DNA of 64,000 nt from Eledone cirrhosa. Taxonomy: Eukaryota. The stretch spans positions 36,766,001 to 36,830,000 of the forward strand of contig OZ024750.1 of assembly GCA_964016885.1 (NCBI GenBank), given 5' to 3'. Below, piece by piece: positions 3,360 to 64,000 of this stretch (positions are counted from its first letter, which is position 1; each line of letters starts with the position of its first letter). Position numbers and translations under genes: made by a program. The notes beneath the pieces were generated by a model. The model did no database searches. It was not told where the DNA came from and saw only the letters and a program-made list of their open reading frames with translations.

Positions 3360-3550
3360 ATCTGGTTCCTATAGCAGAATCAGTAGAGGGGCTGGAGAAT
3401 AAATTCTGGCTATGGAAACAGCAGTTGGAATGAAGCGGACTGAGAGTGAATCTAGCTAAGACAAAAGTGTTGATGAGTAGAAAAGAGGACAAAACTCTGA
3501 TTCCGTCCAGGAAATGGCCATGTTCGATATGCATAAAAGGAACTGGCATC
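3360..3550 (+). pseudogene. RTE LINE reverse transcriptase fragment
   Basis: IAESVEGLENKFWLWKQQLE*SGLRVNLAKTKVLM...KWPCSIC; lacks the rest of the ORF and has an in-frame stop. Confidence 0.85.
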
Positions 3551-4498
3551 CGTTGCTTTCAGCAGGATCACTTTCGAAAAATTCCCACTGTACCTCTATA
3601 TTGCACGTCTCTAATTGCTCTTCCTTATTGTCAAAGGCATCAAGTAATAAGCTTTTAAATTTGTCACTGGCTATGGGGTCCTTCAACTTACATATTCTTC
3701 TCCTGAAGGTAGTCCTCCGCTGTCGTCGAGTACGTCTATTCCTGACTATGAGGTCACTAACTACTAGGCTATGTTGGGAGGTGCATTCTTCACGGGGGAG
3801 GGATTTAGTGTTTACAACAGACACTTTGTCACGTCTTCTAGTAAGGATATAATCTATCTGGCTGGCGTGTTCCCCTGATCTATAGGTGAACAATTGGTTT
3901 TCTCGTTTTTTGAAGTTTGTGTTACAGATAGTTAGGTTATTAGCTTCACAGAATTCCAGGATTCTGAAGCCTTCCTCATTTCTATTTCCAAAGCCATACC
4001 CTCCATGGATTCCATCATAGCCATCACTATGTTGTCCAACGTGACTGTTTAGTTTGCCAGCAATAATTAAGTAGTCGCTGTCGGTTATTTGGGAGGTGGT
4101 ATGCATTAGCGTCTCATAGAACCTGTCCTTTATAATGTCAGGTAGACCAGATTGGGGTGCATAAGCAGATGTTATTGTCACAGTAGTTCTATTTAGAACT
4201 AGTCTTATTTTAATTATTCTGTCATTCACTCTATTTACGTCAATTACCTTATCTACCCATTTTTTAGCTAACGTAATTCTTACACCACCCAGTCCGTTGT
4301 CATTTCCCACCCAGAAAAGTTTACAGCATCGTTTTTTACCCACAATGAATCTGGCAGACCCATCTCTCCACCTAGTCTTGAACACAACAAACATCAACTT
4401 CTTTATGTTCAAGCATCTCTACAACCTCATTTGAGCGACCTTTCAATGTGCCTACGTTCACGGTACCAACTCTGAAGTTGGGAGGGTGGGATGGATGG
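3551..4498 (-). pseudogene. RTE LINE apurinic-like endonuclease fragment
   Basis: ORF 3456..4412 has SAYAPQ, G.LNSHVG, GYGFGNRNEEG, NTNFKK and QIDYIL motifs; joined in inverted orientation to the RT piece. Confidence 0.92.
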
Positions 4499-4681: not shown

Positions 4682-4971
4682 ATTGTTTCTACTTTTGGCA
4701 CAAGGCCAGCAATTATCCCAGTGTATTACTGGTACTTTATTTTATCGACCCCGTAAGGATGAAAGGCAAAGTTAACCTCAATAATAATGTTTCTACTTTT
4801 ACAGAAGGCCAGCATTTACTCCAGTGCATTACTGGTACTTTATTTTATCGCTCCGTAAGGATGAAAGGCAAAGTTAACCTCAGCATGATTTGAACTCAGA
4901 GCATAAAGGGCCATAACTCTATCTGCAAAGCATGGCGTCCGACCCTCTACTGATACTGCCAATCCACCGCC
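4682..4971 (-). mobile_element. SINE family A (tRNA-like head, Meta-type core, ATT tail): one partial plus one full copy
   Basis: Reverse complement of GAGTTCAAAT...GAGGTTAACTTTGCCTTTCATCCTTACGGGGTCGATAAAATAAAGTACCAG. Confidence 0.9.
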
Positions 4972-8767: not shown

Positions 8768-8775
<8 letters not shown>

Positions 8776-9120
8776 GAAAATAACAGATTAAAGTTTAAGC
8801 AAAGAATCGCTGCTTTCACCCTTAACGGGATCTTCTGAAACTAAAAAAGTCAATCTGTGAACGCAGAAGTAAATATTTCAAAAAACGTTCTTCCTGTCTT
8901 CCTCCGGTTGCAACGTTTTTTGAAATATTTACTTCTGCGTTCACAGATTGACTCTTTTTAGTTTCAGAAGATCCCTTTAAGGGTGAAAGTAGCGATTCTT
9001 TGCTTAAACTTTAATCTGTTATTTTCATAAATATTTGCTCTACGGTTCTTATATATTTGATATATATTTATCCTTATCGACCCCTCTTTGGATTTTACTC
9101 TTCAAATTTATTATTATTAC
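8768..9120 (+). mobile_element. (TA)n-embedded element 3' end with ~122-bp foldback (8768-8889 / 8912-9034)
   Basis: Near-perfect inverted arms with 22-nt loop; family also at 36990-37100 and 63885-63952, all ending ATTTATTATTATTAC(TA)n. Confidence 0.8.
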
Positions 9121-9276
9121 TATATATATATATGTTCTTCTGGTTTTATAATTTCACAAATGTTTACTAATAGAGAGAGAGAGTATGTATGTATGTGGTG
9201 TTTCAACAGCTATTTCTGAGTTGTCCAGAAATAGCCGTCGAAACGGCTTGAGCTCTGCCGTCAAGGTCTTGAACAT

Positions 9277-9335
<59 letters not shown>

Positions 9336-9566
9336 GAAACACACAGATACATGCGGACACACACATATATACATGAATGCATCCGCACCCAACTGTGAGT
9401 TAAGGGTGCCAACTTCACCGATGTTGCTCAATGAATGACTGGGACAGACCAATTCAGTTTGAACCAGACTGAACCAGTATCAGAGTTAAAAATACATTAT
9501 GAAGAGAGAAGAAACATTTAGATATAATTAGTAATAAAATGTATCATACCTAAACTGCTCCTAAAT

Positions 9567-9654
9567 TCCTCGACTACGTAGTTTCGTGGCATAAACAAAA
9601 ACAATATATCAAAGATATAGAGTCCTTGCGAGGTCTGCCAACTTATCAAGAGGA
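9567..9654 (-). ncRNA. Type I hammerhead, U3-A8 variant (mirror copy)
   Basis: Reverse complement of 10427-10514. Confidence 0.8.
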
Positions 9655-10426
9655 TACCTCATTTTACTAGTCTCAAGAACGCGTCTACACGACGTGAGAA
9701 AGAATCCCAAAAGGCGGAGGGGGAGATAGTCACGCGATATAACGGTCGAGAAACAGAGCTAAGCCTCTTATAACCACGAAGAAAATACCACGGAGGCGGA
9801 GGGGGTATTCATATCGAGGCCGTAGAAGAGGTAGTGAAGAAGGCGAGAAGTATGAGTAATGGAAGCTTTCCAGTTGTCCCCACACTTCAAAGATTGCTCG
9901 ACCAGAGGGAGTTATTAATATATTTAGAAACACACAGATACATGCGGACACACACATATATACATGAATGCATCCGCACCCAACTGTGAGTTAAGGGTGC
10001 CAACTTCACCAATGTTGCTCAATGAATGACTGGGACAGACCAATTCAGTTTGAACCAGACTGAACCAGTATCAGAGTTTGGCACCCTTAACTCACAGTTG
10101 GGTGCGGATGCATTCATGTATATATGTGTGTGTCCGCATGTATCTGTGTGTTTCTAAATATATTAATAACTCCCTCTGGTCGAGCAATCTTTGAAGTGTG
10201 GGGACAACTGGAAAGCTTCCATTACTCATACTTCTCGCCTTCTTCACTACCTCTTCTACGGCCTCGATATGAATACCCCCTCCGCCTCCGTGGTATTTTC
10301 TTCGTGGTTATAAGAGGCTTAACTCTGTTTCTCGACCGTTATATCGCGTGACTATCTCCCCCTCCGCCTTTTGGGATTCTTTCTCACGTCGTGTAGACGC
10401 GTTCTTGAGAATAGTAAAATGAGGTA

Positions 10427-10514
10427 TCCTCTTGATAAGTTGGCAGACCTCGCAAGGACTCTATATCTTTGATATATTGTTTTTGTTTATGCCACGAAAC
10501 TACGTAGTCGAGGA
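10427..10514 (+). ncRNA. Type I hammerhead, U3-A8 variant, extended stem II
   Basis: TCCTC-TTGATAA-GTTGGCA..TGCCAC-GAAAC-TACGTA-GTC-GAGGA; 5-bp stem I, G10.1-C11.1 pair, palindromic stem III ACTACGTAGT, GUC site at 10507-10509. Confidence 0.82.
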
Positions 10515-10583
10515 ATTTAGGAGCAGTTTAGGTATGATACATTTTATTACTAATTATATCTAAATGTTTCTTCTCTCTTCATA

Positions 10584-10648
<65 letters not shown>

Positions 10649-10653
10649 TATAC

Positions 10654-10729
<76 letters not shown>

Positions 10730-10730
<1 letters not shown>

Positions 10731-10950: not shown

Positions 10951-11050
10951 GAGTCAGAACCCTCAAGAGCTCAAGCCGTTTTGACAGCAATTTCTGGACT
11001 CAGAAATAGCTGTCGAAACAGCTTGAGCTCTGTTGTCAGGGTTCTGACTC
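10951..11050. repeat. Foldback of the GAAACRGCTTGAGCTCTGYYGTC family (also 9200-9270, 35633-35747)
   Basis: Inverted arms around ATTTCTG-gact-CAGAAAT. Confidence 0.85.
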
Positions 11051-11448
11051 TTTGGAGATATATTTTCAGGCTTCAAATGTCAATTTGTACGCCCATATAC
11101 GGTATACATCTTTATACACACATACACACACGTATGTGTGTGTATGTAAGTATATAATCTATATATGTATGTGACTATGTATGTGTGTATGTATATAAGT
11201 ATATTTATATGTATGTATATAATTATATTTATGTGAGTATGTATGTATGTCTGACTATAGATATAATTATCCCATGCTGTCGATGGACCATACTAGCACT
11301 ATTGAAAGACTGACATGGTAAAGAAAGCTTTCTTTCCCTTTCACCAAAATGTCAACCTAATAACATTCTTTTAATATGTTCTCAGTGGGGGAGCGGTTTG
11401 ATTATTTGTCTTTGTTTTTATTGTTTCTACTGTTTTTCATTGATGATA

Positions 11449-13164: not shown

Positions 13165-14473
13165 TGCGGTCACATTGGACAACATAGTGATGGCTATGAT
13201 GGAATCCATGGAGGCTATGGGTTTGGAAATAGAAATGAGGAAGGTTTCTGAATCCTGGAATTCTGTGACACTAATAATCTAACTATCTGTAACACAAACT
13301 TCAAAAAACGAGAAAACCACTTGATCACCTATAGATCAGAGGAACACGCCAGCCAGATAGATTATATCCTTACTAGAAGACGTGACAAAGTGTCTGTTGT
13401 AAACACTAAATCCTTCCCCCATGAAGAATGCACCTCCCAACATAGCCTAGTAGTTAGTGACCTCATAGTCAGGACTAGATGTACTCGACGACAGAGGAGG
13501 ACTACCTTGAGGAGAAGAATATGGAAATTGAAGGACCCCATAGCCAATGACAAATTTCAAAGCTTATTACTTGATGCCTTTGACAATAAGGAAGAGCAAT
13601 TAGAGACGCACAATATAGTTGCTGAGATGTTGAAGTCATCTGGAATGGTGGGACATACTATGGTCACCCGTATAGTAAAACAAGTAATACATGGGGTCAT
13701 ACCAAAAGACTGGCATAGCAGCATCATCATTAACTGCTACAAGGGTAAAGGGATGCTCTAGATAGGGGAAACTATAGAGGCATTAAGTTAGTTGACCAGG
13801 TCAGGAAAGTCACAGAAAGAGTTATAGCGCAATTAATCAGAGAGCGAATTGATCTAAATGAAATGCAGTTTGGCATGAAAGACGACAGCTGTATAAAAAA
13901 TTGCAAGGTGACCAAAATTGAAGGTAGTTACGGAGTAGGTAGACCCAGAAAAACCTGGGACGATTTGATAAATTCCGACCTTACACACTTGCACCTCTCT
14001 AAGACAATGTCACTGGACCGAGATCTTTGGCGCTACGCAGTAATACAGAAGACCCGCCTTGCCTATATACAAAGCGAAACCTACAGTCAGTAGGCCCCTC
14101 TTAACCAAATATACACCCCAATCCACTACCCCCTACCCTATCCTCCCACTCCCACCAACACCACCTTCTCTCTGTAAAGTTGGTACCACAACATTCAGTC
14201 TAAATAAATGAGATAATGAGATCGAGATCGTGTAGGTGTCATGACAAAAAAACACTGTCCCCGGTGTACTGTTGCCGGTAAAAAGTTCCCAGTCCACACT
14301 GTAAATGTGGTTGGTGTTAGGAAGGGCATCCAGCCGTAGAAAACCTGCCAGACAGTCTTATATGAGCGAGACACGGTCACCCGACCAACCTTGCCTCAAA
14401 TGGGACAACTCCCGTCTAACCCATGCTAACGTGGAAGATGGACGTTAAATGAAGATGATGAGATGATGATGAT
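13165..14473 (+). pseudogene. Internally deleted RTE LINE (EN, RT start, C-terminus, 3' UTR)
   Basis: Closely matches the reverse complement of 3600-4040; AEMLKS..IPKDW..YKGKG, NYRGIKL, MQFG then jumps to GRPRKTW; (GAT)n tail. Confidence 0.9.
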
Positions 14474-24220: not shown

Positions 24221-25472
24221 TAGCAGAGGCACCCGGTATTGCCTGGGAATGAAATTGTTCCTTATATATTAGAAGGAAGAAGCTAAATATGTTGTATAGA
24301 AATTTGTTATTCTAAATTCAATTTATTCTTCAATTGGGATACATGATGAAATCAATTCTGAATTCATAATACAAAAAAAAAATACTAATAATAATAATAA
24401 TAAATGAAAATACAAAATTTACCACTTTTATCATATGCTGAAGGAAATTATATAAGAGCTTCTGGGTAAACAACATTCTTGGTTTTCTGGTTTGGAGCAT
24501 AGAAAAATAAGTCTTCTTAACTACCCACCCTGGAGCAACCAACATAAAGTTGACAATGAGAAAATCAAGGCTCAATTAAGTGCAAGCCAGTAGATTTCAA
24601 AGTCTGACCTTGAGCTTTATTAATAGACATTGCGAAGTAAAGTCTCACTAGGAATTGTGTTCGTTTGAACTCAAATGGTATGTCTGTTGGTTTGATTGGA
24701 ATTCTTGGAATGAAAACTTCTTCCCCAGAGGCACACCCAGTGATGATGGTAGCTTCTATCATATTAGGTGATAATGTCTTCTCAATCAACCTTGTCCTAT
24801 TGAATAATTTAGGAGGATCTAAATCTCTTAGAAGCATTATTGGGACTCCTACCTTCAGAAAAAGTTTATGTGGAGGAGTTCCAGGTGGCTCAAGAGAATT
24901 AAGGAACTCGGTTAGTGGACAGCTTGATTTTCATCAAGGACTGAATCAACTGATTTGTACTCCTTAATGACTGTTGGAATCTTATTCATTAATTCATGGT
25001 TAATCCTTGCTAATGTCTCATTTTTTTTAGCAAGAATTTCCCTTTCACACAACTATTTATCTGAATTATAATTATTACTTAAGTCTGTAAATACCCTGTA
25101 GGGTCAGAATTCAGCTTAGGATTCCTCCATGATAACAATATGAGCCAAATTGATATCACCATTCCCATCAATTGGTACTTTCCTATTTCCTAATTGGAAC
25201 TGGGTTGAAAACTGTTCTGCACATTGGTCCCTATGTAATAAGTATTGCATGTTAGTATTGAAGGAGAATTTCTGTACTTTATACGATAGCTGCGAAGACT
25301 TAATACATGCTTTTATTTCATCAGCTCTTGTTCCTCTCGGAATGACTGGTAATGTCTGTCTGAAGTCTCTTGATAAAACTAATGTAACTCCTCCCATAGA
25401 TTTATTGTTGCCTCTTATGTCTTGTAAGGTCTTATCAAGAGCTTCCATTGCACTGATATGTGACATGGTGCA
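24220..25472 (-). mobile_element. Helitron 3' portion: PIF1-like helicase pseudogene plus terminus
   Basis: ECTM..EALDKTLQDI..GGVTLVLSRDFRQTLPVIPRG and [28 protein letters not shown]; minus-strand end CCCAGGCAATACCGGG hairpin then CTAG into TA. Confidence 0.93.
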
Positions 25473-25520
25473 TTCCCTTGCAAGCAGGGAAAAATGGACG
25501 TAAAAGGATGATGATGATGA

Positions 25521-25848
25521 TATCTTTTTTACGTCCGCTTTTTCCCTGCTTGCAAGGGTGGGACGGGAACTGATTCTGGCTTGATTTCTACAGCTGGATG
25601 CCCTTCCTAACACCAACCTCATTTACAGTGAGTGCTGGGTGCTTTTTTGCCGTGGCACCTCCACGACCATTTTGCAGTGGAATGATATGGACCCCAGTCC
25701 CTATCATCTCATTTCTACAGCTGAGTAAACTGGAGCAATGTGAAATAAAGTGTCTTGCTCAAGGAAATAACACATCACCCGGTCTGAGAATTGAACTCAC
25801 AACCTTTCGATTGCAAGGCCAATGCTCTAACCACTAAGCCATGCGCCT
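25521..25848 (-). mobile_element. SINE family B
   Basis: Full copy; a short inverted tail piece lies at 25472-25520. Confidence 0.93.
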
Positions 25849-35632: not shown

Positions 35633-35747
35633 TAGGAAAAAGTATGACCCCGACGGCAGAGCTCAAGCCATTTCGACGGCTATTTCTGGACGAGAAATAG
35701 CCGTCAAAACGGCTTGAGCTTTGCCGTCGAGGTCATACTTTTTCCTA
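35633..35747. repeat. Foldback, ~55-bp arms, in (TA)n context
   Basis: TAGGAAAAAGTATGACC..ATTTCT-ggacg-AGAAAT..GGTCATACTTTTTCCTA. Confidence 0.9.
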
Positions 35748-36800: not shown

Positions 36801-37094
36801 TATATATCATATTTAATATAGAAATAGCTTCTGCAGGACTAGAACTGTTTCATTCCAAAGATTGAACCCGGAACTCACACATACACACATGCATGCACAA
36901 ATATATATCATCATCATCATCATCATTTTGCATCCGCTTTTCCCTGCTTGCAAGGGTTGGTCGGGTCCTATTCAGCACAGCATCTCTCCTTAAATAACAG
37001 ATTAAAGTTTAAGCAAAGAATCGCTGCTTTCACCCTTAACGGGATCTTCTGAAATGAGCCCTCTTCGGATTTTAGTCTTCACATTTATTATTAT

Positions 37095-56273: not shown

Positions 56274-56612
56274 GGAGGTACATGGCTTAGTGGTTAGAGC
56301 ATTGGCCTTGCAATCGAAAGGTTGTGAGTTCAATTCTCAGACTGGGTGATGTGTTGTTTCCTTGAGCAAGAGACTTTATTTCACATTGCTCCAGTTTACT
56401 CAGCTGTAGAAATGAGATGATAGGGACTGGGGTCCCTATCATTCCACTGCAAAGTGGTCGTGAAGGTGCTACGGCAAAAAAGCACCCAGCACTCACTGTA
56501 AATGAGGTTGGTGTTAGGAAGCACATCCAGCTGTAGAAATCCTGCCAGAATCAGTTCCCGTCCCACCCTTGCAAGCAGGGAAAAGCGGATGTAAAATGAT
56601 GATGATGATGAA
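56274..56612 (+). mobile_element. SINE family B
   Basis: Full copy. Confidence 0.92.
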
Positions 56613-58639: not shown

Positions 58640-59122
58640 AGAGAGAATACTGCGTTGGTAGAGATGTGATGCATATGGATGATGATAACTGGGTGAAGAA
58701 GTGCCAGGAAATCTCAGTGGAAGGAAGACCAAGGAAGACCTGGGCAGAGGTGGTCAGAGCTGGGGTCGACAGAATAAAGTACCAGTAATGCACTGGGTAA
58801 TTGCTGGCCTTGTGCCTAAAGTAGAAACAATTATTATTATTGTAGTAAGGGCGGTGGATTGGCTGTATCGGTAGAGGGTCGGACGCCATGCTTTTCAGCA
58901 TAGAGTTACGGTCCTTTATGGTCTAAGTTCAAATCCTGCTGAGGTTAACTTTGCCTTTTATCCTTACGGGGTCGATAAAATAAAGTACCAGTAATGTACT
59001 GGGTAATTTGCTGGCCTTGTGCCAAAAGTAGAAATAATTATTACGGGGTTGATAAAATAAAGTACCAGTAATACACTGAGATGATTGCTGGCCTTGTGCC
59101 AATAGTAGAAACAATTATTATT
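58640..59122 (+). mobile_element. RTE C-terminal scrap followed by SINE family A stack
   Basis: MHMDDDNWVKKCQEISVEGRPRKTWAEVVR (58665-58760), then SINE A pieces. Confidence 0.85.
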
Positions 59123-59125
59123 ATC

Positions 59126-59167
<42 letters not shown>

Positions 59168-59168
<1 letters not shown>

Positions 59169-62100
59169 CCAACATTGCCATATTAAGAGTAGGAAGTTTA
59201 AATGTTCGAGGCCTGGAGTCGCCCTGGAAGCAGGGTCACCTGCTCAACGACCTCAGGGCTCTACAAATGGATGTAATTGCTGTCAGTGAGACCATGATTT
59301 CCGACACGTGTGCAATAGCCCCCATTTTCGATGACTATCGGATCTTCGCATCTGTTAGTCAGCCTGGAATGGGATGCGGAGTGGCAGTGCTATTTAGGAA
59401 AGGTTTGGATCTCAAGGTAAGGTTGATCTTCCGGGACCCGGACGGAAAGTCAGTGGTCCTGGATATGAACAATAGCGAAGATGGTGCCTTTAGACTGGTG
59501 GCCGTCTACGTCCCTACCGGGGAAGGACGGCCAAACTTCTTTATACGCCTGTGTACATCTCGCCCTTTATCATTAGTGGGGAAATGGAATGGCATCTTAG
59601 ATGCATGCTAGGACTGTGTGGGAGTAGCCGATAGGAGCGGGGGGTGCAATAGCCTCAAGTACCTGATCAGCAAGTTCCAACTGTCTGACAGATATTGACT
59701 ACATTTCCCTAATGCGGCAGTGTGGAGCTGGACCAATCATATAGGGTCATCTAGATCATATATAGACAAGATATTCATTAGGAAAATAGATAGAAATAGT
59801 GTACTCTGTCCACATTTTAAAACAGTCAACCATATAGATCACAAGTTTGTGATCTGAATAGGTGACCTAGAGAAGACTTGTAGATTAGGACCTGGTTACT
59901 GGAAGCTGAACATGTCGTTTCTGGCACAGAAGGCTTACAGGGATTGGGTCAACAATTTAGTTAAACAAAAATTGACAGAGGGGTGGTCATCAACAACAGA
60001 TGGTGGGGGGCTCTCAAAAGAGGGATTAGAGTAAGTTTGATATAGTTTAACAAAGAAGTGCCATTAGAGAAAAATAGAAAGGAGGGGGAGCTGGTAGCTA
60101 AGTTAGACGAGGCTATTTGTAGTGTCGGTGAGAATGGCATTAGACCATTTCTTCAATGCGAAACACAAAGGTTGCATTGTCAGAGCTAAGGCGTGTGCTC
60201 TGAGAAACAAGGGAACCAAAGTTGTTCGATAGGCCTGCGTGGCAGAGGTGCAGCGTGGTAATAAAACCACAATATGGTCTTTGACGGACTGAGATGGACA
60301 CGAGCTGAGCGATTCCAGGCGGATAGTGATGGACTTCAGTCTCTACCTCAACGGCTTCCTGCACCTTTTGACAGCCAACGTTGAGAGCTGTGAAAGGCTG
60401 ATAACTACAGACGAAATTCCTGATTCCCTTGTGCGCTGCATGAGGCGCAAATCACCCGGTTTGGATGGTCTGCCCTTCGAGCTTTACATAGATATGCCAG
60501 ACTTGTTCTCCAATCTCCTCATGCACTCTACTGTAACTGGCAGCAGAACGGAAGTATTCCCAGTTCTGTGAGCCAGGGCATAGAGACACTGATAAGGAAA
60601 GACAAGAACAAGAGGGACACATTAGATAACTTCAGGCGACCCATAACTCTGCTCAACACAGACTTTAAGATTTTGGCCAAGGTTGAAAATTTGGTTGGGG
60701 AGGCACAAACTTGTGCAATCACTACCAGGACCATACACAATAACCTCCACCTCATGCAATACATCATAGAGAGGGTAGGGTGTAAACCTAACTTTGGTGG
60801 GGCTCTGATCAATTTAGAGCAATCAAAAGCATTCAATAAAGTTGACCATCGCTACCTGGAGGCTGTCCTCAAGGCAGTTGGCTTCAACCCCATCTTCAGA
60901 AGCTGGATTGTTGCAATGCAGTACGGCATCTGCTCAGTGGTCAAAGTTCATGGCCACCTCTTGGAACCATGTCAGATCTCTCAATTGGCACCGTCAATGG
61001 TGTCCTCTTTGCTCCCTTCTGTACGTATTGACTCTCAAGCCTTTACTGCAGAAACTGAAGCTGTTGTAGGGCATCCCGCTCGAACTGGGATGCGGAAAGG
61101 CTGTGTCAGCTTATGCAGACAACATCACCGTGATGGGGTCAGACACCTTGGAAATCGAGGTGGTCGGCAATTTATTGGAGGAATATGAAAGGTTGACGGG
61201 AGCAAAACTTAACCCGGAAAAATCGGTGAGCTTGCAACTTGGCACTTGGAGAGGCAAGTCCATGCTGTCCAACAGTGTCATTGGGTGCTAGACAGATGGT
61301 CCGGTAAAGTTGCTTGGGGTTTGGTCGGGCCAGACCTCCTGGTGGATAAGAATTGTGATGAGGTGATGGGCAGGTTAGCCAGTCTCACCCAGAAATGGGC
61401 TGTGAGGAAGCTATCACTGAAAGGTTTGGCGGAGGTGGCGAATGCGTACATCACGTCGTCATCTATTACCCCTTGACCATCATGCCTTGCCCCTATCCGC
61501 GCCTCGCCAAGTTGGAACGGCTCCTCTTCAAATTCTTTTGGAGGGACAGGTTCCATTGGTGAGATGGTCCAATTGCTGCCAGCACCTTCTGCGCAGAGGG
61601 CTGGGCATGCCGTGGCTAATGATACGCTGAGATTGCGGCATCTCCAGATATTCTGCCTTGATGGTGCTCGCTGTTTGTCAGACAGGCCTTTCTGCAACAG
61701 TCCTGGGTCAAGTATAGACCGAGACTGGGTGACTGGCATCTGGAATGTTGCCAGGCACTTACTGCTCTCTACCAGGCAGGCTATGTGGTCAGTGGAATTT
61801 CAACTCTTGAGTTCTATAGAGGATTAGTGGTGGGCAAGTGTGACGACTCACTTGGAGAGACTTTGGGCATCAACGAAGTTCAACCGACCAGTCTGTTCAG
61901 GAGGACCTTCAAGCCAGGGACGATGGATAACTTCCAAAAATCCCTTGCTTGGCAGTGCTGCTGGGGGGGGGGGGGGGCACTGCCAGTTCAAGATAAACTC
62001 TACAGGTACAGAAGTGCTGTCAGATGGACCTGCCCGAGATGCGCGCAGAGCGACGAAACCATTCTGCACGCACTCGTTCAGTGTTCGTGCATTACTGACT

Positions 62101-62690
62101 TGTCGAGTTATGTCAGACAGCTGTTGTCGCATGTAGAACGGATCCGGCTATTGACCAAGTCCATAGTGAAGATTGATTCGCCGCCTTCTTTTGGCCAGGA
62201 AGAGCAGGCAATTTTCCTCTGTCTGGTGGCAGTTGCAAAAGAGGTTGTATGGTGGACGAGGCTGAAAGTCCTGAAGACAGACACTTTCTCTTCGGCCAAT
62301 CCCTCATCAACTTTTTCAAATTTCACTTGGTGAGGAAGGAGAGAGAAGTGCTGCCCCCCCCCCCCCCCCAGTACATTTGCTGAAAGGTGGGTGAATGTGG
62401 CGACAATGGCCCGCGTGAGTGGGCCTACCCTGATCATGATCCTGTAGGCTGGTGAATTTGAGGCGGAGAGAGGGGTGCCCTCGAAGTGTCAGGTGGTTCA
62501 GGATTGGTGGGGTACCTGAAGCAACCCTGAGTGGTTATCTCCCCTATTGGGGAATTTTCATTGTTGTATTTTTCTTATTGCTATTGTTTTCCTATTTTTT
62601 ACTCGATTTTTATGTAAAACCCCCACTGTCCCCGTCTATTGTATTGTGCCCTATATGTCGGCCCTTGTGGCCAATATATAAAACCATTAT
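59168..62690 (+). pseudogene. L1/Tx1-clade LINE, near-complete but disrupted ORF2 plus 3' UTR
   Basis: EN (GSLNVRGL, VSET, VAVYVP, SYIDKI, DH, GYWKLN), RT (KSPGLDGLP, RPITLLNTDFKILAK, KAFNKVDH, SAYADN), zinc knuckle CPRC..ETILHALVQC; many frameshifts and stops. Confidence 0.93.
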
Positions 62691-63860: not shown

Positions 63861-63890
<30 letters not shown>

Positions 63891-64000
63891 TAACAGATTA
63901 AAGTTTAAGCAAAGAATCTTTGGATTATAGTCTTCACATTTATTATTATTACTATATATATATATATATATCGTCATCATCATCATCATCGTTTAACGTC

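Follow-up and report, generated by a model that had tools for sequence, protein, structure and literature searches.

PLE insertions are described as partial tandems that can be accompanied by an adjacent inverted, truncated copy and by a tail of 30–40 bp, often present on one side only, and targeting of (TA)n is known for the Hydra and Naiad clades (PMC8557442). In the account given for an anole PLE, the protein of the element cleaves AT-rich DNA on both strands and extends each of them, two internal RT start sites bound the tail, uncut RNA is the dominant substrate in vitro, and a start site lies 85–92 nt past the ribozyme cut, i.e., 111–118 minus 26 by subtraction (PMC11167929). The hammerheads of PLEs are reported to have U3-A8 covariation, a long stem II and a palindromic helix III, to act as dimers and to cleave weakly in vitro (PMC4209133). 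The retrozyme circles of invertebrates are given as 170–400 nt (PMC7229834), and in a preprint retrozymes are treated as non-autonomous PLE sequences with lengths of 51–972 bp (bioRxiv 10.64898/2026.07.22.740005). A process described for another element, L1, is twin priming, in which both target ends prime on one RNA (PMC2912911). Both PMC8557442 and PMC11167929 leave open how PLEs form their tandem and inverted copies and whether hammerheads or circles have a role in this.

The window analysed here is a stretch of 64,000 nucleotides from Eledone cirrhosa, AT-rich and dense in microsatellites, with remnants of LINE, helicase and other transposon sequences. It contains an insertion for which we hold the following reading with better than even confidence: a non-coding unit of 591 nt, multi-copy and with a predicted hammerhead, was inserted here recently; the unit is likely a non-autonomous derivative of a PLE terminal repeat; and the insertion was probably made by a PLE enzyme that primed from both ends of the cut (TA)n target on a single RNA, uncut and at least 2.1 units long.

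On the minus strand the insert reads a, b, TTTT, a and then (TA)n, with segment a repeating at a period of 591. The first copy of segment a (161 nt, 10078–9918) begins at the 5′ end of this long arm and is followed by segment b (426 nt, 9917–9492), which is pLTR-like and has start site 1 at its 3′ end (9492); TTTT (9491–9488) separates b from the second copy of a (161 nt, 9487–9327), which ends at start site 2. The second copy of a together with TTTT makes a one-sided “tail” of 165 nt, beyond which is the left (TA)n target microsatellite (9281–9332), the last 6 nt of which are common to the end of segment a. The long arm is fused head-to-head to a plus-strand copy (10078–10589) that is inverted, 5′-truncated and has no tail: it comprises 86 nt of a (10078–10163) and all of b (10164–10589), ends at start site 1, and runs into the right (TA)n target microsatellite (10587–10730). 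The arms (9487–10003 and 10078–10594) are 99% complementary, and there are exactly three substitutions among the copies (9420/10011, 9670/10411 and 9759/10322), i.e., 0.24% of 1263 nt; by comparison with the public sequencing runs X1, X2 and X9, one of these is private to the first copy of a and two to the inverted arm. The locus amounts to 1.27 units, with one predicted ribozyme per arm, and the unit has no further copy elsewhere in the 64-kb window. Its GC content is 41%, its CpG observed/expected ratio is 0.87 (9488–10078) compared with 0.45 for the window, and a 12-nt C-rich motif is present twice in b, 82 nt apart. The first-pass annotation had described an a-b-a insertion with an inverted copy, a period of 591, (TA)n at both outer ends and about three substitutions between copies, all of which are confirmed on the window sequence; its view that the insertion is recent is supported, for a unit that is non-coding, hammerhead-bearing and of PLE/retrozyme type.

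It had also been noted that there is no meaningful ORF, and this holds: the longest stop-to-stop frame inside the insert is 86 aa, and none of the nine insert frames scanned (frames of 30 aa or longer number more than nine) reaches the Pfam cut-off, the best E being 0.069. The insert has no ORF for the telomerase-like RT or the GIY-YIG endonuclease of an autonomous PLE, and of 10 further frames scanned in the window, none has a PLE protein annotation.

Elsewhere in the window there are broken remnants of LINE-type endonuclease/RT and of a PIF1-like helicase (3456–4418, 13252–14093, 59072–62333 and 24565–25622). Short palindromic MITE-like repeats of one family, about 80–88% alike, are located at 9200–9280, 10955–11055 and 35636–35744, and the first of them abuts the left (TA)n of the insert. 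A 267-nt MITE-like element with 80-nt terminal inverted repeats (8768–9034) adjoins a TA array, and its ends recur at 36992–37054 and 63878–63918. A dispersed repeat, whose 29-nt core is conserved, is present in 17 copies (e.g., at 4729, 6208 and 58963) and is probably a cephalopod SINE. The only match in the window at the Rfam gathering threshold is a weak, tRNA-like one (56281–56344, 29.9 bits), which is not called by ARAGORN and is probably a SINE head.

A ribozyme monomer had been proposed at first reading, without a position. A descriptor scan now places a predicted type I hammerhead at 9654–9567 on the minus strand and a second, identical predicted copy at 10427–10514 on the plus strand. 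The descriptor, which was widened for a bulge in stem II after a stricter version had missed the motif, has only two matches in 64 kb, one per arm, and matches none of 2000 shuffles of the unit; the first, strict scan gave two weak matches, unrelated to the motif. The predicted hammerhead has a stem I of 5 bp, the core U3-U4-G5-A6-U7-A8-A9 at 9649–9643, a stem II arm of 57 nt with a bulge at 9640, GAAA at 9585–9582, a palindromic (self-complementary) stem/loop III, and a predicted cut after the C at 9572. Position 9640, the predicted bulged base, is the only near-fixed difference from the family within the motif. When constrained to the hammerhead, the fold has −21.5 kcal/mol compared with an MFE of −23.1 kcal/mol, a cost of 1.6 kcal/mol. 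In Rfam, the insert has no hammerhead match at the gathering threshold or at E ≤ 10, and its 17 sub-threshold matches were set aside as chance resemblances to hairpins or miRNAs; as the 591-nt family shows, Rfam misses enlarged U3-A8 hammerheads.

Ribozymes in both polarities, a feature of viroid-like replicating circular RNA, were not found: when both strands were searched for hammerhead cores and Rfam families, the motif was present in the sense of each arm only. Scans with patterns of the 3′ half of the ribozyme yielded one viral and 18 metagenome loci, which were judged to be unrelated because they match the unit over only 16–25 nt around the pattern and the upstream core is absent; the phage collection searched gave no match. 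A 130-nt palindromic intergenic repeat, sometimes in tandem, was observed in GC-rich metagenome contigs (L003–L009, L011, L012, L014, L015 and L017), and is unrelated to the 591-nt unit.

The unit as a whole folds far better than its shuffles (z −5.45 as a linear and z −6.3 as a circular molecule, the latter against 40 shuffles). A predicted 19-bp hairpin (9510–9562, minus strand; z −2.66 for an 83-nt stretch) ends 18 nt before start site 1, and a predicted long hairpin (9929–9992, minus strand; z −4.57 for an 89-nt stretch) ends 11 nt before start site 2. Both start sites are 11–18 nt 3′ of a predicted long hairpin, and each has a few TA letters in common with the target.

The boundary between b and a is spanned by a candidate retained intron of 81 nt (9469–9549, minus strand), with a GTATGA donor, a TACTAAT branch, an AG-free pyrimidine stretch and a TTCAG acceptor. 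The descriptor for it was designed after the motif had been noticed and matches 58 of 5000 shuffles, and a skip of 81 nt by splicing is absent among the joints listed in the runs examined, for which the library kinds are not given. Introns are located at the pLTR in Penelope and Chlamys-3 as well, and on this ground b may be taken for the pLTR and a for the beginning of the parent body. The order from b to a looks like the natural order from pLTR to body, and the parent ORF would probably be 3′ of a, not 5′; the earlier expectation, that in an ordinary truncated PLE segment a would extend 5′ into an RT ORF, thus probably pointed the wrong way.

The unit was found in 20 public runs from 16 studies under 17 organism labels (24 runs listed). 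Among the 24 there is no RNA run that contains the unit, which does not bear on its expression. Four of the 24 listed runs (X1, X2, X9 and X22) were compared more closely and used as evidence, and three of them (X1, X2 and X9) have coverage; X22, a Hi-C run of which about 1 in 100 was read, yielded no reads of the unit and does not count as a test. The joint b-TTTT-a, which connects 10078 with 9488 (back 591), is present in all three covered runs, and this joint, which the first-pass annotation had wished to see checked at other loci, is not unique to the locus. X1, for which the library kind is not given, has one closed contig of 621 nt (591 plus a 30-nt overlap) without a branch and with a depth of 7.8, which is a circle or a tandem and fits both equally well. 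X2 has 1462 short contigs, the longest listed being 140 nt, with very high summed depth, and may derive from the source of the window itself. In X1 and X2, no share of the records compared continues into unlike sequence; the share is 0.22 in X9, where the records concerned match only a CA-rich part of 33–35 nt (9930–9968). The a-to-b path is continuous in contigs of X1 and X9 and closed in X1, and neither X1 nor X2 has ORF-like run-on, which indicates that at other loci, too, the 591-nt unit is present in ORF-less form; given the short contigs of X2 and the nine of its 88 loose ends listed, there may be a rare link to an RT ORF. An array of at least two full units was not directly seen in the contigs examined, those of X2 being short.

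Among the nine of 88 loose ends of X2 that are listed, (TA)n joins the unit at exactly 9492 (seven contigs) and 9918 (five contigs). These are the positions of the outer ends of the insertion studied, start site 2 recurring as a loose (TA)n end at 9918 (= 9327 + 591), and among the same loose ends there is none at the ribozyme cut at 9572. In place of the permuted starts that had been anticipated, there are two fixed sites 165 nt apart (9492 and 9918), neither of which is the ribozyme cut. Position 9640 is A in both arms of the insertion but G in about 94% of the depth of X2 and G in X1 and X9; this rare allele, being common to both arms, points to one donor. At the a/b border there are variants with a 3-nt insertion and, in two contigs, a longer TA run, which suggests that this border may preserve the trace of a former TA target at which the unit became closed. 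The unit has a depth of only 8–13 in two of the three covered runs, and its presence under 17 labels is explained more simply by trace carry-over from a very abundant repeat than by transfer, diet, related species or RNA being other conceivable sources; that a circle moves between hosts is very improbable.

If the two arms are placed one after the other, the 512 nt of the inverted arm and the 751 nt of the long arm, with TTTT between them, make a continuous path of 1267 nt, i.e., 2.14 units, in which only the 4 T are missing. The long arm stops 4 nt from start site 1, where the inverted arm starts; arithmetically, the chance that a random stop falls within 5 nt of that site is about 11 in 591. 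Start site 1 is 80 nt past the predicted cut, not far from the 85–92 nt derived for the anole PLE, and start site 2 is 165 nt further. In the mechanism that we propose, a tandem source locus would be transcribed as a multimer, and a PLE RT/GIY-YIG protein, supplied in trans, would cut both strands of (TA)n. One target end would prime at start site 2 (the end of a) and copy a, TTTT, b and a (751 nt) until it met the second complex, and the other would prime upstream at start site 1 (the end of b) and copy 512 nt, namely b and 86 nt of a. In the template RNA the ribozyme would not have been cut. The two cDNA ends would then be joined at a 1-nt overlap (or at AGTT plus one extra T), and TTTT would be missing at the point of inversion if the template were one RNA.

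The chief alternative is that the unit lives as a 591-nt circular RNA, cut and closed by its ribozyme and copied for more than one lap, as in the retrozyme model of Cervera and de la Pena, by a PLE enzyme working from two fixed sites at once. The closed 591 + 30 contig of X1 (from a library whose kind is not given), the strong circular fold, the circular RNAs shown for the retrozymes of coral, mussel and axolotl, and the fact that both arms cross the cut site, are nearly identical and have a rare allele in common are all consistent with it. On a circle, however, the long cDNA would have to pass start site 1 on its first lap and stop 4 nt before it on the second, and the second primer would have to use RNA that had already been copied; with a linear multimer neither would be required. 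Furthermore, none of the nine loose ends listed (of 88) marks a family end at the cut site, PLE-type hammerheads cleave weakly in vitro (PMC4209133), and eight of nine Xenopus dimers are reported not to have cleaved. The circle is therefore conceivable but rather unlikely, and, judging from the geometry of this one locus, a linear multimer is clearly preferred over it as the template. The original proposal of a template longer than one unit is upheld; of the two forms that it allowed, circular or tandem, the circular one is not favoured by this geometry.

Other explanations are improbable in varying degree. The insert could be an ordinary 5′-truncated autonomous PLE of which only the pLTR and tail were copied, with the period of 591 as a local partial tandem; its layout and ribozyme type are like those of autonomous PLEs, and the summed depth of X2 falls 5′ of 9808, as truncation would give, summed contig depth not being equal to copy number. 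This is improbable, as the a-to-b path is continuous in contigs of X1 and X9, closes on itself in X1, and does not run on into ORF-like sequence in X1 or X2. The locus could also have been built from two separate RNAs, by two successive insertions into the same (TA)n, or by template jumps between linear monomers ending at the b/a boundary: segment a begins almost exactly where b ends, as would be the case for a linear monomer with a UUUU terminus, and the family is abundant in X2. We give this little credence: (TA)n is absent between the arms, 9640A is present in both, and b-TTTT-a is regular family sequence with small variants only, not a one-off jump. Finally, the inversion junction was not seen in the four runs compared (three with coverage), as would be the case if it were a fold-back artefact of assembly; but the arms are asymmetric and differ at two positions, their outer flanks are unrelated, and the end of the inverted arm is one of the recurrent sites of the family, which makes an artefact barely credible.

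The reading preferred here, priming from both target ends on a linear multimer, can be told apart from the circle. If twin priming took place on a multimer, the long arms should end beside start site 1, which is not expected from a circle, and in a short, young and abundant family with two fixed start sites, counts of junctions in one genome could test the mechanism of PLEs. If the circle were nevertheless true, this very young family would document directly that an animal element can be retrotransposed from a circular template. In the literature searched (outside Repbase, Dfam and most subscription journals), no description of the family was found, although it may be catalogued, and twin priming was not found applied to PLEs.

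How, then, does the unit compare with known systems? By sequence, it has the features of an animal non-LTR retrozyme: a predicted type I hammerhead within the unit, no coding capacity, and head-to-tail closure (the X1 contig and the back-591 joint in X1, X2 and X9). As in the accounts of these elements in PMC7229834 and bioRxiv 10.64898/2026.07.22.740005, it is non-coding, with a GC content of 41%, strongly self-paired, and of a kind whose mobility is proposed to be driven by PLEs. It differs in that the unit is longer, and in that its ribozyme, a predicted one, is a PLE U3-A8 hammerhead with a 57-nt stem II arm. The earlier remark that the monomer is long for an animal retrozyme stands against the range of 170–400 nt (PMC7229834) but not against that of 51–972 bp (bioRxiv 10.64898/2026.07.22.740005). 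The preprint also has a rule of two consecutive units for an active retrozyme, whereas the locus has one ribozyme per arm. Under the same preprint, the retrozyme and the PLE partial tandem, first put forward as alternatives, are nearly the same thing.

The locus has the layout of a PLE insertion. With the EN+ PLEs (Penelope/Poseidon, Neptune, Hydra and Naiad; PMC8557442, PMC4209133 and PMC11167929) it has in common the partial tandem, the inverted 5′-truncated copy, the one-sided tail, the microsatellite target, the predicted hammerhead upstream of two RT start sites and a candidate intron over the boundary of pLTR and body; the 5′-UTR introns given for Penelope and Chlamys-3, of 75 bp and 398 bp, are likewise at the pLTR. 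In contrast to these elements the insert has no ORF, and its two start sites are 165 nt apart, making a tail of about 165 nt, i.e., four to five times the 30–40 bp described. As to the parent clade, Hydra fits by (TA)n and hammerhead, Neptune is also possible, and Naiads are described as without canonical hammerheads. The non-autonomous Chlamys elements (e.g., MRC1 of Chlamydomonas) are similar as ORF-less passengers of PLEs that form pLTRs and head-to-tail insertions, but they belong to a mostly ribozyme-less clade in green algae (PMC8557442). The 5′-inversion of L1 by twin priming is similar in that two target ends use one RNA and a short overlap links the cDNAs head-to-head (PMC2912911), whereas the insert is devoid of poly(A) and of a readable target duplication, has fixed internal start sites and would depend on a different enzyme. 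Thus, the kind of element is itself already known; its long tail and enlarged ribozyme are mildly unusual.
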